Sequence record: ON540300.1
Reading direction: 5' to 3' (one strand)
DNA length: 64,000 nt
DNA from: Escherichia phage ECOH1
A program made the position numbers and the translations under genes. Every line of letters starts with the position of its first letter. Positions within the stretch are counted from its first letter, which is position 1. Under the pieces are notes generated by a model. That model worked only from the letters and a program-made list of their open reading frames with translations, made no database searches and was not told where the DNA came from. This document shows positions 3,349 to 30,775 of this stretch, piece after piece.

Positions 3349-4815
3349 ATGGCAGATATTACAGAAACACAAGAAAGCTTACCACCATTTAGAATGGGTG
3401 AAGTAGGTTCTTTGGGTCTGAAGGTTAAGAATGGAAGAATCTATGAAGAACCTCGTCAGGCACTAAGGTTCCCTGAAAGTATTAAAACTTTCCAATTAAT
3501 GATGCGTGACCCTGCTGTAGCAGCATCTGTAAATATTATTAAGATGTTTGTCAGAAAAGTCAACTGGAGATTCGTACCTCCAAAGGGAAAAGAGCAAGAC
3601 CCTAAAATGCTTGAAAGAGCAGACTTCTTTAATTCTTTAATGGATGACATGGAGCATGATTGGGCAGATTTTATTAACTCTGTAATGTCATTCTGCACTT
3701 ATGGGTTCTGTGTTAACGAAAAGGTTTATAAGAAACGTCAGGGTAAAAAAGGAAAGTATCAGTCAAAATTTGATGATGGTCTAATTGGGTGGGCTAAATT
3801 ACCAATCAGAAACCAGTCAACACTTGATAAGTGGTATTTTGATGAAGACTTTAGAAAAGTTACTGGTGTCAGACAAAATCTAAGAAATGTTTCACATATT
3901 GCTGGAGCAATTAATCTTGGAGAAAGACCACTAACAAGAAAACTTCCACGAGCTAAATTCATGCTGTTTAAGTATGATGATGAGTATGGTAACCCAGAAG
4001 GTCGTTCACCATTACTTAATGCTTATGTACCGTGGAAGTATAAAGTACAGATTGAAGAGTACGAAGCTGTTGGTGTTTCAAGAGACTTGGTAGGTATGCC
4101 AAAGATTGGTTTACCACCAGATTATCTTGATGAAAATGCAGAGCCTGAAAAGAAAGCTTTCGTACAATACTGCAAAACTGTTGTTAATGATATGATTGCT
4201 AATGACAGAGCAGGTTTAATCTGGCCTAGATATATCGACCCAGATACTAAAGAGGATATTTTTGAGTTCTCATTAGTTTCTAGACAGGGTGCTAAAGCGT
4301 ATGACACAGGTTCTATCATTGACAGATATTCTAAGCAGATTATGATGGCATTTATGTCAGATGTTCTTGCTATGGGTCAGTCAAAATATGGTTCATTCTC
4401 TCTTGCAGATTCTAAGACAAGTCTATTAGCGATGTCAGTAGATATTCTGCTGAAGCAAATTAAGAACGTAATTAACCGTGATTTAGTTGCACAGACTTAT
4501 GCTCTTAATATGTGGGATGACGAAGAACATGTACAAATCACATATGATGATATCGAAACTCCAGACCTTGAAGCAATTGGTTCTTATATTCAGAAGACTG
4601 TTGCAGTAGGTGCTTTGGAAGTTGACAAAGAGCTATCTAACAAACTTAGAGAGCATATTGGTCTCCCTCCTGCTGATGAGTCTCAGCCAGTATCTGAAAA
4701 GCTTTCTCCAAATAGCCAAAGCCGCTCAGGAGATGGTTATAAGACCGCTGGAGAAGGTACTGCAAAGACACCTTCAGCGAAAGACCCAAGCACAGCAAAT
4801 AAGGCAAATAAATAA
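3349..4815 (+). CDS. portal protein (putative)
   Basis: ~490 aa ORF directly after large terminase; start moved to ATG 3349 with RBS aggtgag. Confidence 0.6.
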   Translation: MADITETQESLPPFRMGEVGSLGLKVKNGRIYEEPRQALRFPESIKTFQLMMRDPAVAASVNIIKMFVRKVNWRFVPPKGKEQDPKMLERADFFNSLMDDMEHDWADFINSVMSFCTYGFCVNEKVYKKRQGKKGKYQSKFDDGLIGWAKLPIRNQSTLDKWYFDEDFRKVTGVRQNLRNVSHIAGAINLGERPLTRKLPRAKFMLFKYDDEYGNPEGRSPLLNAYVPWKYKVQIEEYEAVGVSRDLVGMPKIGLPPDYLDENAEPEKKAFVQYCKTVVNDMIANDRAGLIWPRYIDPDTKEDIFEFSLVSRQGAKAYDTGSIIDRYSKQIMMAFMSDVLAMGQSKYGSFSLADSKTSLLAMSVDILLKQIKNVINRDLVAQTYALNMWDDEEHVQITYDDIETPDLEAIGSYIQKTVAVGALEVDKELSNKLREHIGLPPADESQPVSEKLSPNSQSRSGDGYKTAGEGTAKTPSAKDPSTANKANK

Positions 4816-28028: not shown

Positions 28029-28358
28029 TTAATCTGCCAACCTTAAATTAAAATTAACACCAAATTTTTCACATACTTCCAACATAAACTCAAGAGAGAC
28101 ATTACCAGTGAGGTTGATTATGTTGGATACACGAGCTTGAGAGATACCACAAATCTTAGCAACTTGCTCTTGAGAAAGACCTCTGGATTTAATCTCTCTC
28201 TTAAAACGATGTGCAACGAAGTCTCTCATTTCGTCTACATCCATTGGACAAATATAACTCTCCATTTCAGCTTCTCTGTCAGCCTCCCAATCATCTTGTG
28301 GAGCATAAGGGTCAAAAACCTCATTCATCTTTCTTCTTCCGTTTACGTGAAGCATCAA
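28029..28358 (-). CDS. helix-turn-helix DNA-binding protein (XRE-like)
   Basis: HTH-like segment LSQEQVAKICGISQARVSNIINLTGN. Confidence 0.55.
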   Translation of the reverse strand: MMLHVNGRRKMNEVFDPYAPQDDWEADREAEMESYICPMDVDEMRDFVAHRFKREIKSRGLSQEQVAKICGISQARVSNIINLTGNVSLEFMLEVCEKFGVNFNLRLAD

Positions 28359-28534: not shown

Positions 28535-28918
28535 TCAAATACCTGTGCAGCTTCTGTTTTCTAAGAAATACTCAACACCATACATAGCTTTTTGCATCAA
28601 GTCTTCTTTAAACTGAATACGATGATTGAGCATAGCCTGTACATCAATATCTTCATGGTGCTTCTCTTTAATGTTTGCAGATTGCAGGAAATACTCTGCA
28701 AGAACACGATACTGATAGTCAGTTACCTTATCAGTCATCTCTGTTAAAGACTCTTCAGAGATTGGTTTAAGTAACTCACCATTAGCCAAAGCAACACCTT
28801 TAACAATCTGACAAGTGTCTTCTGGAACACCTGATAAGTCCACATTTGGGAGTTCTGTTGCATTGACTGGTAAATTCATTGACATAACCATTGCAGCAGC
28901 TAATAAAATCTTTTTCAT
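28535..28918 (-). CDS. secreted/periplasmic protein with signal peptide (first gene of minus-strand operon)
   Basis: N-terminus MKKILLAAAMVMSMNLPVNA resembles a Sec signal peptide. Confidence 0.5.
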   Translation of the reverse strand: MKKILLAAAMVMSMNLPVNATELPNVDLSGVPEDTCQIVKGVALANGELLKPISEESLTEMTDKVTDYQYRVLAEYFLQSANIKEKHHEDIDVQAMLNHRIQFKEDLMQKAMYGVEYFLENRSCTGI

Positions 28919-29478
28919 AATGACCTCAAAGTTATATTAAATTTTGTATTACATTGAGTATAAAAATAAGCTATAACACCTGATTTGTCAACAGATTTTA
29001 TAGCTTATTTGGCAGATTTTTTTTATAAGGCTACTGCCATCCTTCCATACCAAACCATACCAGACATAGCCATACCCGACCGTACCTCGCCTCACAACAC
29101 TTAAAAATCCTCTTAGAAGACTCTTAAGTGATGTAATCGAATTTTAATGTAGCTCCGATTAACTACCCATACCTCACCTCATCCAACCATACCATGCCTT
29201 ACCAGACCGCACCTTACCTTATTAAAAGACCCTATTTAAAGACCTTTTAAAAAGGTGAGTCTCATTTTAAATGTAGCTGAGACTAACTACCCATACTGTA
29301 CCGCACCTGACCCGACCTGACCAGACCTAACATTACCGTGCCACACCGTACCGAACAGAACATTGCCATACCTCGCATCACTTAAAAACCCTTTTAAAAG
29401 ACTCTTAAGTGATGCTGGTGAGTACCCGTCGGTTTATGCTGCTCAGTATACTCACCAAATTTTCTATGTCAACAACTT
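28919..29478. repeat. 560-bp non-coding region with composite direct repeats, CCATACC-like heptamer tracts and hairpins
   Basis: Two copies of cacttaaaaa(t/c)cc...aagactcttaagtgatg (about 29098 and 29380), two copies of ttttaa(a)tgtagct..aactacccatac (about 29142 and 29263), more than 12 CC(A/G)TACC-like units, strongly G-poor top strand. Confidence 0.7.
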
Positions 29479-30582
29479 TTATTCATAATCCCTAATAACT
29501 AGTCCGACAGGGAACTGTAAAGAACCCTTACGAGTCATCTTCTGGAACTGTACCGTTAAAGGCTTCCCGATAAACTCTTCAGGATGCTCAGCAAGATACT
29601 GTTTCTTCTCATGAGTAGTCTTCCATGAGACATCTACAAAGACGTTAGGAAGAGTCTCTACAACGAACTTGCCATGACCACGCTTATCAGTCTTTACACC
29701 AGTCACTTTAAACTCTTCAGTGTGCATCTTCTTGTGCTTAATCAAGAAGTATGAACGGTGACAACACTCATAGAAGGAGTCTTCAGAGATTGAACGGTAC
29801 ATTGCACCTTCAAACTTAGCTTCAACCCACTTATCATGAGCTTCATCAAACTCTTCCCAAGAATTTACACGACGAGACTTAACAGGAACAACTTTACAGC
29901 CGTCTCTGAAGTCATTCAATGGTGAAGTCTCAATAATATCTCTACGCTCAGGCCACGTCTTAGTACTATCACAGATATCGTACCAGTAAAACTTGAGCAA
30001 GTGTCTGTCAGGATTGTCTTCATTTTTAATCATGGAGACGATATCTTCTAAGTCCCACCCATGAGCATAAATCTCTCCATCAAATTCATCAACATCTTTG
30101 TGGAGCCTTAGCATTGCCATAATGTCAGGTATTAGTTCGGCAGGGATTTTATAAACAGTATTTTCACGAGAATATGCTGTAAATACACTGCCAATACTTA
30201 AGTGTCTTGAAATTCTACAACGGACACCATCAAGTTTTGGTTGAGCATCAGCAGGGAACTTCAGATACTTTGCATGACTAACCTTTGCAGCATCATGAGC
30301 AAGCTGCACACCTACCTTCTCAGTATTCTGTGCAGACTCTTTTGTGTAAGCATAGCCTTTGCGGTCAACCTGCTTTTTATACTTAGCAGCAACTTCAAAG
30401 AGAGCTTGCTGTTCAGCGTTACGCTCATTCTTTTTACCGATGTTTTTAGGTTCTGCTGTATACTCTTCAAACATCATCTTGCCATTTTCTTTGCCATACG
30501 TGGTAACAACTTTGTCACCTACAGCGACACATGACCAGACGTTAAAAGAGCCATCTTTATTTTGTTTGTACAGTATTGTCAT
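29479..30582 (-). CDS. ATP-dependent DNA ligase
   Basis: Adenylation motif I PKLDGVRCRIS (KxDG); start moved to internal ATG at 30582 with RBS cagaggaataaa. Confidence 0.7.
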   Translation of the reverse strand: MTILYKQNKDGSFNVWSCVAVGDKVVTTYGKENGKMMFEEYTAEPKNIGKKNERNAEQQALFEVAAKYKKQVDRKGYAYTKESAQNTEKVGVQLAHDAAKVSHAKYLKFPADAQPKLDGVRCRISRHLSIGSVFTAYSRENTVYKIPAELIPDIMAMLRLHKDVDEFDGEIYAHGWDLEDIVSMIKNEDNPDRHLLKFYWYDICDSTKTWPERRDIIETSPLNDFRDGCKVVPVKSRRVNSWEEFDEAHDKWVEAKFEGAMYRSISEDSFYECCHRSYFLIKHKKMHTEEFKVTGVKTDKRGHGKFVVETLPNVFVDVSWKTTHEKKQYLAEHPEEFIGKPLTVQFQKMTRKGSLQFPVGLVIRDYE

Positions 30583-30583
30583 T

Positions 30584-30775
30584 TTATTCCTCTGAGTGAT
30601 ACCAAGTATTGCAAGCATTACATGCGTAAAGCTCTAAGTCATTTTTATCTGGTTTATGAAAACAGTTTGCTCCGCAGTGGCAACGAAACGGCTTTCCACC
30701 AACTGTCAGGATGAAGGATTGAACCTTTCCATCAGGAGTCCGTACAGCATTTTTATGCTTGTCTTCTTTATTCAT
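30584..30775 (-). CDS. small zinc-finger protein
   Basis: CHCGANC...CNAC cysteine clusters in 63 aa. Confidence 0.4.
   Translation of the reverse strand: MNKEDKHKNAVRTPDGKVQSFILTVGGKPFRCHCGANCFHKPDKNDLELYACNACNTWYHSEE

Follow-up and report, generated by a model that had tools for sequence, protein, structure and literature searches.

A 560-nt non-coding island of Escherichia phage ECOH1 is very probably an array of VIPR guide RNA genes that has lost its effector

We analyzed a 64,000-nt stretch of the genome of Escherichia phage ECOH1 (sequence record ON540300.1), hereafter the window, and in it a 560-nt non-coding gap at positions 28919-29478, hereafter the island. The window derives from a phage of the Felix O1 type (Felixounavirus). 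Over 60 kb it shares 95% identity with Salmonella phage S19cd, the closest relative with a complete genome, and corresponds to positions 17956-81085 of the complete, 85,995-bp S19cd genome. The island is flanked by a ligase gene (29479-30618) and by a gene encoding a 127-amino-acid (aa) protein (28535-28918). Both of these, like all genes adjoining the island, lie on the minus strand, which is also the strand on which the repeats of the island are informative. An earlier note on this DNA had suggested that the island is a set of iterons or arrayed protein-binding sites, possibly a replication origin. We instead conclude that the island is very probably an array of three vrRNA genes, the guide RNA genes of a type II, SUSP1-like VIPR system, read on the minus strand from a promoter termed P1 and orphaned by loss of the effector gene vipr.

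The period of the repeats is 5 nt, and not 7 as the earlier note had it, in both a phase scan and Tandem Repeats Finder (TRF). The repeat unit is GGY-NN on the minus strand, or NN-RCC on the plus strand. Units of this type form three tracts of 17, 10-11 and 10 copies (Table 1), one more than the two G-poor tracts described earlier. When the 64-kb window was scanned, CC was found in phase 5 at 9 of 10 consecutive units in these three tracts only, and no phase-5 counts of at least 5 were seen outside of them. The repeat signal is thus far beyond chance. TRF returned periods of 5 and 10 in the tracts, and of 13 in the leader repeat preceding the second tract.

Each tract is preceded by a stable hairpin and followed by an H-type pseudoknot, and all three are situated between P1 and P2, which are leftward, near-consensus sigma-70 promoters. 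The three tails are unlike in sequence, and share one common H-type pseudoknot fold. Among 14 tail variants, 9 of the 11 pairs of the tail pseudoknot displayed compensatory changes, and 89.6% of cells were paired, compared to 27-38% when the partner columns were slid. Several fixed elements had been recognized before. Two near-identical hairpins were confirmed as 41-nt elements with stable RNA folds (29094-29134 and 29375-29415), while two boxes of the form ttttaa(a)tgtagct...aactaccc (29134-29167 and 29258-29291) proved to be vrRNA tails read on the opposite strand. The H2-type hairpin is likewise found ahead of vrRNA1 and vrRNA4 of Escherichia phage SUSP1. Based on the promoter matches, P1 is predicted to drive a non-coding transcript of ~430 nt, and we conjecture that the leader hairpins may act as processing sites. 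Searches of the island with Rfam covariance models, run at a permissive cut-off, gave no match at the gathering score. The best one, a DUF2815 RNA motif placed over the vr1 tail and the leader (29231-29293, minus strand), reached 18.4 bits where 41.2 would be required (E = 6.4), and was taken as a chance match.

Table 1. Features of the ECOH1 island in the order in which they would be read from P1 (window coordinates; NN, variable dinucleotides of successive units; S1 and S2, pseudoknot stems).
Feature	Position	Strand	Details
Promoter P1	29445..29472	-	TTGACA, 16-nt spacer, TATACT; 11/12 consensus positions; directly past the ligase stop codon
8-bp inverted repeat GGTGAGTA / TACTCACC	29417..29456		Arms 29417-29424 and 29449-29456; brackets the P1 -10 box and predicted start
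Hairpin H2, vrRNA1 leader	29375..29415	-	41 nt, 19-bp stem, -20.3 kcal/mol, z = -7.1 vs shuffles
vrRNA1 tract (guide vr1)	29291..29374	-	17 units; NN: GA AT AA TC TC AC GT AC AA TA CT CA CG CA GC AC AT
vrRNA1 3' tail, H-type pseudoknot	29258..29291	-	S1 GTAG/CTAC, S2 AGTCTCA/TGAGACT; covariation
vrRNA2 leader hairpin	29216..29257	-	~13-nt CTTTTAAxAGGGT-like repeats, 2.9 copies (TRF); -15.4 kcal/mol
vrRNA2 tract (guide vr2)	29167..29220	-	10-11 units; NN: (AA) AA GC CT AA AT AT TG GA GA AT
vrRNA2 3' tail pseudoknot	29134..29167	-	S1 GTAG/CTAC, S2 TAATCG/CGATTA
Hairpin H1, vrRNA3 leader	29094..29134	-	41 nt, -21.1 kcal/mol, z = -5.7 vs shuffles
vrRNA3 tract (guide vr3)	29045..29093	-	10 units; NN: GA GA AC CG AT TA CT AT TT AT
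vrRNA3 3' tail pseudoknot	29011..29045	-	S1 AAGG/CCTT, S2 GGCAG/CTGCC
AT-rich hairpin and UUUUUAU, terminator-like array end	28964..29010	-	-17.8 kcal/mol, z = -4.7; loop contains the P2 -35 box
Promoter P2, for the 127-aa gene (28535-28918)	28963..28991	-	TTGACA, 17-nt spacer, TATTTT; 10/12 consensus positions

The comparison with related phages that the earlier note had proposed was run on a locus set of 23 IMG/VR contigs and several GenBank phages (28 related loci). It found the fixed elements nearly invariant and the tracts in register. P1, the inverted repeat, the hairpins, the boxes and P2 were almost unchanged throughout, and Citrobacter phage Moogle was no exception: its flanking non-coding elements are near-identical, although identity of the adjacent protein is only 33%. 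All relatives keep P1, which in SUSP1, Moogle and wV8 stands ahead of the first vrRNA, and the counterpart of P2 is annotated as a promoter in phage ASO1A. The tract sequences themselves were wholly different between close relatives, with the register preserved. Across 71 distinct tracts, the first G (G1) was present in 78% of units and the second (G2) in 98%, the third position (Y3) was a pyrimidine in 99%, and positions 4 and 5 were near random. Tract lengths followed 5-nt steps (47/48, 52/53, 57/58 and onward to 98 nt), equivalent to 9-19 units with a mode of 11, and individual phages carried from one tract (Felix O1, ASO1A and EC6) to five. The Shigella phage ESh22, a Mooglevirus, possesses no vrRNAs, vipr, vap1 or P2 (L033 2835-3010); there, a single P1-like promoter stands directly before the homologue of the 127-aa gene.

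Many relatives, wV8, SUSP1 and Moogle among them, have two genes inside the array at this locus (gp96 and gp95 of wV8). The wV8 gp96 protein matched PDB entry 36pp, 'SUSP1 Vipr protein', with E = 6e-128 and 98% identity; searches of Pfam and PADLOC returned no match for it, and PHROGs only an entry of 'unknown function'. The type II VIPR of SUSP1 consists of Vipr, Vap1 and four vrRNAs (bioRxiv 10.64898/2026.04.26.720920, 10.64898/2026.04.26.720927). According to these 2026 VIPR preprints, Vipr is a minimal protein with the RAMP fold and a relative of Cas5/6/7, and a vrRNA is composed of 9-16 YNNGG repeats and an invariable ~40-nt tail, which in the SUSP1 clade contains a pseudoknot. Each repeat is bound by one Vipr protomer, with G1, G2 and Y3 flipped into pockets, of which the Y3 pocket bars purines (bioRxiv 10.64898/2026.04.26.720927). 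The NN bases pair with DNA in the form NNxNNx..., in which the skipped x is usually the wobble base of a codon, and transcription is silenced (2026 VIPR preprints). SUSP1-infected cells contain four ~100-nt vrRNAs, one encoded upstream and three downstream of vipr-vap1, and these co-purify with Vipr, as determined by small-RNA sequencing and pull-down (2026 VIPR preprints). Natural targets could be identified for 20 of the 41 guides of the SUSP1 clade, and 18 of these 20 address a satellite integrated in E. coli (2026 VIPR preprints). We found the SUSP1 locus to be built from the same parts as the island: P1, the inverted repeat, a hairpin, a 12-unit tract and a tail precede vipr, and three leader-tract-tail units follow it, ending at P2. 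The idea of arrayed protein-binding sites thus stands insofar as homologues seat one Vipr protomer per GGY, and fails insofar as these sites act in RNA and are not DNA iterons.

The association of such tracts with Vipr extends beyond this phage group. A scan of IMG/VR with the bare DNA pattern (GGTNN)7GGT, which makes no use of any protein, identified at least 120 loci, many of them from unrelated phages in which hypervariable tracts, up to a dozen or more per locus, alternate with short punctuation of fixed sequence. Single-sequence phmmer searches placed gp96 homologues in 38 of the 120 listed pattern loci (39 open reading frames, ORFs), and in several loci the gene flanked by the tracts encodes a protein with an end similar to that of gp96. 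The longer arrays, with up to ~17 tracts, were observed in unrelated phages (L039, L046, L092, L091, L044 and L111), and their punctuation is unlike the Felix O1 type (e.g., GGCTAATGG, AAGGAATGGTTTAATGAATTTAAT and GGCAGTT). These long-array contigs probably represent other VIPR types.

We next consider what the guides of the island would address. The satellite was located by a DNA search with the SUSP1 baseplate-like gene named in the preprint, and 474 of the 5,426 complete E. coli genomes contain it. Six satellites were compared: five E. coli copies and one from IMG/VR (L155-L160). The satellite is ~12 kb in length (L155 4400-16400, in E. coli PAR, between yciI and tonB), and its integration sites include yciI-tonB, a DUF72 gene near yecD, and lafU-dinB. 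It carries genes for a large serine recombinase, a tape-measure protein and a baseplate protein, together with a DNA adenine methyltransferase in some copies. Read with the 1-nt skip code, vr1 matched 32 of 34 positions at L155 8871-8920, within a 185-aa gene (target sequence GAAATTAACTCATCCACTGTGACAAATCATCTTCAGCGTCAAGCAACCAG). The match is in frame, all skipped bases fall on wobble positions, and the codons spell E-I-N-S-S-T-V-T-N-x-L-Q-R-Q-A-T. The same guide scored 32/34 in L160 and 30/34 in L159, compared to a best score of 21/34 elsewhere, and the probability of such a match, corrected for the number of sites searched, is ~5e-12. For vr3, 17 of 20 positions matched at the first codons of a small serine recombinase gene in two satellite variants, again with the skips on wobble bases. 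These were the two best matches in the 1.56 Mb of sequence searched, and statistically they are only suggestive.

No match of at least 80% was found for vr2 in the six satellites, the window or the 1.56 Mb of loci, and an exact-pattern scan of IMG/VR with this guide found nothing. In GTDB genomes, vr2 gave three matches (Lachnospiraceae and a Thermoprotei genome), with approximately one expected by chance. One of its units reads GAT instead of GGT, while the homologous guide of a vipr-bearing locus (L010) has GGT at that position. For the phage group as a whole, 44 of 72 distinct guides reached at least 80% on the six satellites, compared to 0 of 72 on 67.8 kb of control DNA. These guide-satellite matches reproduce the published skip code independently. 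One satellite (L159) was seen to carry a 13-unit vrRNA of its own (4059-4123, minus strand) with a matching pseudoknot tail (S2 GTCG/CGAC), and satellite-borne vrRNAs are also mentioned in the SUSP1 VIPR preprint. Neither tblastn nor the profile search described below found a Vipr gene in any of the six satellites.

Taken together, these findings show in the island what characterizes a vrRNA: a conserved GGY with hypervariable NN, a pseudoknot tail, and an NN string that matches a natural target by the skip rule. We propose that each vrRNA comprises a leader hairpin, a GGY-NN pentamer tract and a ~35-nt H-type pseudoknot tail. In complete systems, as shown for SUSP1, one Vipr protomer occupies each GGY, and the resulting filament presents the NN dinucleotides. 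These then pair with double-stranded NNxNNx... DNA, leading to silencing of transcription of a satellite that parasitizes the phage.

The same evidence bears on the possibility that the island is a replication origin, with the repeats serving as DNA sites for an initiator. Like iteron origins, the island packs many palindromes and short direct repeats into a long non-coding region adjoining replication genes (ligase and polymerase), and it contains GGTC-type motifs similar to T7 primase sites. In contrast to iterons, which keep their full sequence, two of the five positions of the unit are free while GGY is fixed. The cassette is absent from ESh22 and thus dispensable, its tracts number one to five in relatives, and it is strand-specific. 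The NN string decodes to a foreign gene in the satellite, and the homologous elements of the SUSP1 locus yield Vipr-bound small RNAs. The units are therefore not fully conserved, the element is not present in all relatives, and we regard an origin, as suggested in the earlier note, as extremely improbable. We hold it equally improbable that the tracts act as a G-rich structure or as a sponge for a host protein, be it through two-tier G-quadruplexes, an R-loop, or a CsrA-like or TRAP-like sponge. Three resemblances favor such readings: GG doublets spaced 5 nt apart could assemble into two-tetrad quadruplexes, a period of 5 nt with a mode of 11 units is reminiscent of TRAP sites, and an AAGGAUG is found where the last tract ends. 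However, G1 is only 78% conserved and Y3 is 99% pyrimidine, a profile that fits the Vipr pockets and not quadruplex rules; moreover, Vipr genes accompany the tracts in phages that are not related to one another, and NN carries target information. An R-loop origin of the immunoglobulin switch or ColE1 type, T7-type primase sites (GGGTC/TGGTC), an antisense Rho-utilization (rut) site and pairing to tRNA CCA ends were each dropped, since the GGY profile fits the Vipr pockets and NN decodes a target.

Considered as a complete type II VIPR, the locus is phage-borne and lacks both vipr and vap1. Using tblastn, neither Vipr (best E 2.2) nor Vap1 (best E 0.84) was found in the 64-kb window, and neither protein had a match in the complete S19cd genome. 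A Vipr profile built from 42 diverse homologues likewise detected nothing in the window or in S19cd (best E 2.1, compared to 6.5e-65 for the wV8 control). Alignment to a vipr-bearing locus (L026) suggests how the genes may have been lost. In the sense orientation, positions 1-268 of the island align to L026 1-266, and positions 224-560 to L026 1502-1860. Both alignments include the 45-nt leader repeat (29216..29257 region), where they overlap, and thus a single crossover between leader copies would remove vrRNA2, vipr and vap1. The vr1 guide of the window is that of L026 with one NN different. We therefore propose that the vrRNA2-vipr-vap1 segment was lost from the ECOH1 lineage, most likely by recombination between two leader-repeat copies, leaving guides that appear intact and would still address the satellite, and which, without Vipr supplied in trans, would most likely be inert.

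An alternative is that ECOH1 possesses a complete system, with vipr and vap1 located in the ~22 kb of the phage beyond the window, given that the window covers only the equivalent of S19cd 17956-81085. Against this, every listed vipr-bearing Ounavirinae record has the gene at this very locus, except for a single assembly in which the gene is divided between the two ends of the record; S19cd contains no homologue genome-wide by either tblastn or profile; and the layout of the window is exactly the vipr-bearing layout minus the cassette. We consider a complete system very unlikely, if slightly less so than an origin or a sponge. The state of the ECOH1 locus is moreover a common one. Vipr was found in 118 Ounavirinae GenBank records, compared to 258 with the flanking gene, and the effector-less arrangement occurs in about half of Felixounavirus genomes. 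Among phages with the locus, vipr was present in 77 of 119 named for Escherichia and in 17 of 76 named for Salmonella (Fisher p = 6e-9). In our interpretation, this skew is consistent with vipr being lost where phages do not encounter the satellite, which has so far been seen in E. coli.

We also weighed whether the orphan array is kept for use in trans, in which case its vrRNAs would load onto the Vipr of a co-infecting, vipr-bearing Felixounavirus and so provide defense against the satellite without any coding cost, or would act as a decoy for, or re-program, the Vipr of a rival. Besides the prevalence of vipr-less records, several observations favor this possibility. All 11 of the vipr-less Felixounavirus loci examined still hold one to three complete vrRNAs, with P1 and the tail pseudoknots intact, and G2 is conserved at 97.5% in orphan tracts compared to 98.2% in linked tracts. 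Satellite matches of at least 80% were obtained for 9 of 19 orphan guides and 35 of 53 linked guides (Fisher p = 0.18), and one orphan guide, that of UAB_Phi87, matches a satellite at 22 of 22 positions. Because satellites carry vrRNAs without Vipr, the system already implies that guides can draw on Vipr made by another element. On the other hand, perfect GGY units are slightly rarer in orphan than in linked arrays (65% vs 72%; p = 0.049), vr2 of the window bears a G2-to-A change in one unit, and recent, repeated deletions from vipr-bearing ancestors would give the same picture at a locus where recombination is rampant. We accordingly view use in trans as possible, and on balance doubtful. Somewhat more doubtful still is that effector-less arrays in general represent a strategy maintained by about half of the Felix O1-like phages, whether by free-riding on the Vipr of co-infecting relatives or by capture and re-programming of a rival's Vipr with abundant early vrRNAs (an RNA-based anti-VIPR, or hijack).

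Our preferred reading, an orphan vrRNA array left by loss of vipr, has points that weigh against it as well. The absence of vipr from the ~22 kb of the phage outside the window is argued from synteny with S19cd. At 17 units, vr1 exceeds the published range of 9-16 by one, and vr2 combines a GAT unit with the lack of a detectable target in the searches above. Simple decay sits poorly with the retention of P1, tails, G2 at 97.5% and satellite matches for 9 of 19 guides in orphan arrays, and this retention could mean that the array is still used. Weighing these points, the ECOH1 island most likely arose by a recent deletion within a type II VIPR locus and is now largely inert. Relative to the published account, only the effector-less state of the array is new, the kind of element being already known; the VIPR preprint text, in the parts available, does not mention effector-less arrays in helper-type phages.

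Additional features of the locus were noted. The inverted repeat GGTGAGTA/TACTCACC, which the earlier note had also recognized, is conserved in every relative. The P1 transcript is predicted to start at ~29438, and since the upstream arm precedes this position, the hairpin cannot form in that transcript. The repeat resembles an operator for a dimeric regulator, a candidate for which is possibly the Cro/CI-type helix-turn-helix protein encoded at 28029-28358, and such an operator may set the timing of vrRNA expression. At the position equivalent to 29479-29520, a ~47-aa hydrophobic ORF lies between ligase and P1 in ASO1A, wV8 and Moogle (L003 1780-1925, L031 875-1025); it is missing from the window, where the ligase frame extends up to the promoter. 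Several published assemblies start or end within the locus at differing points, namely warpig (L004 1-157), momo (L005), pinkbiff (1-203) and L027, and these breaks likely result from repeated vrRNA modules breaking short-read assembly. A terminal repeat or packaging site at the locus was considered and rejected: the 608-bp terminal repeat of UAB_Phi87 seems to lie elsewhere, with the record opening in a tRNA region ~29 kb away, and the break points vary among assemblies.

These findings matter in several respects. VIPR is a newly described mode of guiding a protein to DNA, in which specificity resides in dinucleotides within a 5-nt repeat, and it has been proposed to be older than CRISPR. Its guide genes are recognizable from raw sequence alone. 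Many Felix O1-like phages, several of which are used for Salmonella typing and biocontrol, retain satellite-directed guides after effector loss. Should orphan guides prove active in trans, the conflict between phage, satellite and phage would gain a further level, one of sharing or sabotage. If they are inert, they would provide a dated series of decaying guides, and with it a measure of the rate of array turnover. As the search in the preprints began from the Vipr protein, effector-less arrays are probably under-counted.

Finally, we compared the island to known systems. TRAP binds 11 (G/U)AG triplets separated by 2-3-nt spacers in the Bacillus trp leader. The tracts of the island resemble these sites in their 5-nt period, conserved triplet, free dinucleotide spacer, one subunit per triplet and modal 11 units, and differ in that the triplet is GGY, the protein fold is another one, the spacers are informative and the bound partner is DNA. 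With CRISPR arrays of class 1 RAMP effectors, orphan arrays and mini-arrays borne by phages among them, VIPR shares programmable guide arrays, a RAMP protein seated on a fixed RNA motif with bases flipped at regular intervals, and a conserved, structured handle that caps the variable part. Unlike CRISPR, the island has no repeat-spacer layout, its specificity lies in dinucleotides within 5-nt repeats, and every third target base is skipped; VIPR, for its part, has no adaptation genes and silences its targets instead of cleaving them. A repeat finder and TRF detected only periods of 5, 10 and 13 nt and the two ~40-nt hairpins in the island, and thus no CRISPR array. The earlier description of the island as not CRISPR-like therefore holds for its layout, which is without repeat-spacer units, and misses its function, since the array encodes guide RNAs and their partner protein, a RAMP homologue, is kin to Cas5/6/7. 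Orphan CRISPR arrays that depend on effectors encoded elsewhere are known, and an orphan vrRNA acting as an RNA decoy, as one of the alternatives above would have it, would be analogous to RNA anti-CRISPRs. Satellite vrRNAs, such as that of L159, are likewise effector-less guide genes that rely on the Vipr of another element; theirs are carried by the parasite and directed against rival satellites, while those of the window reside in a helper-type phage and are aimed at a satellite. With respect to the type II VIPR of SUSP1, expression and Vipr loading have been seen in SUSP1, and for ECOH1 expression, processing and any use of the guides are putative. The window differs from SUSP1 in lacking vipr and vap1, in having three guides instead of four, and in the 17-unit length of one of these. 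It shares with SUSP1 the slot between ligase and the 127-aa gene, P1, the inverted repeat, leaders, tracts, tails and P2, as well as the target, an E. coli satellite integrated at tonB or yecD, and a 1-nt skip code that falls on wobble positions.

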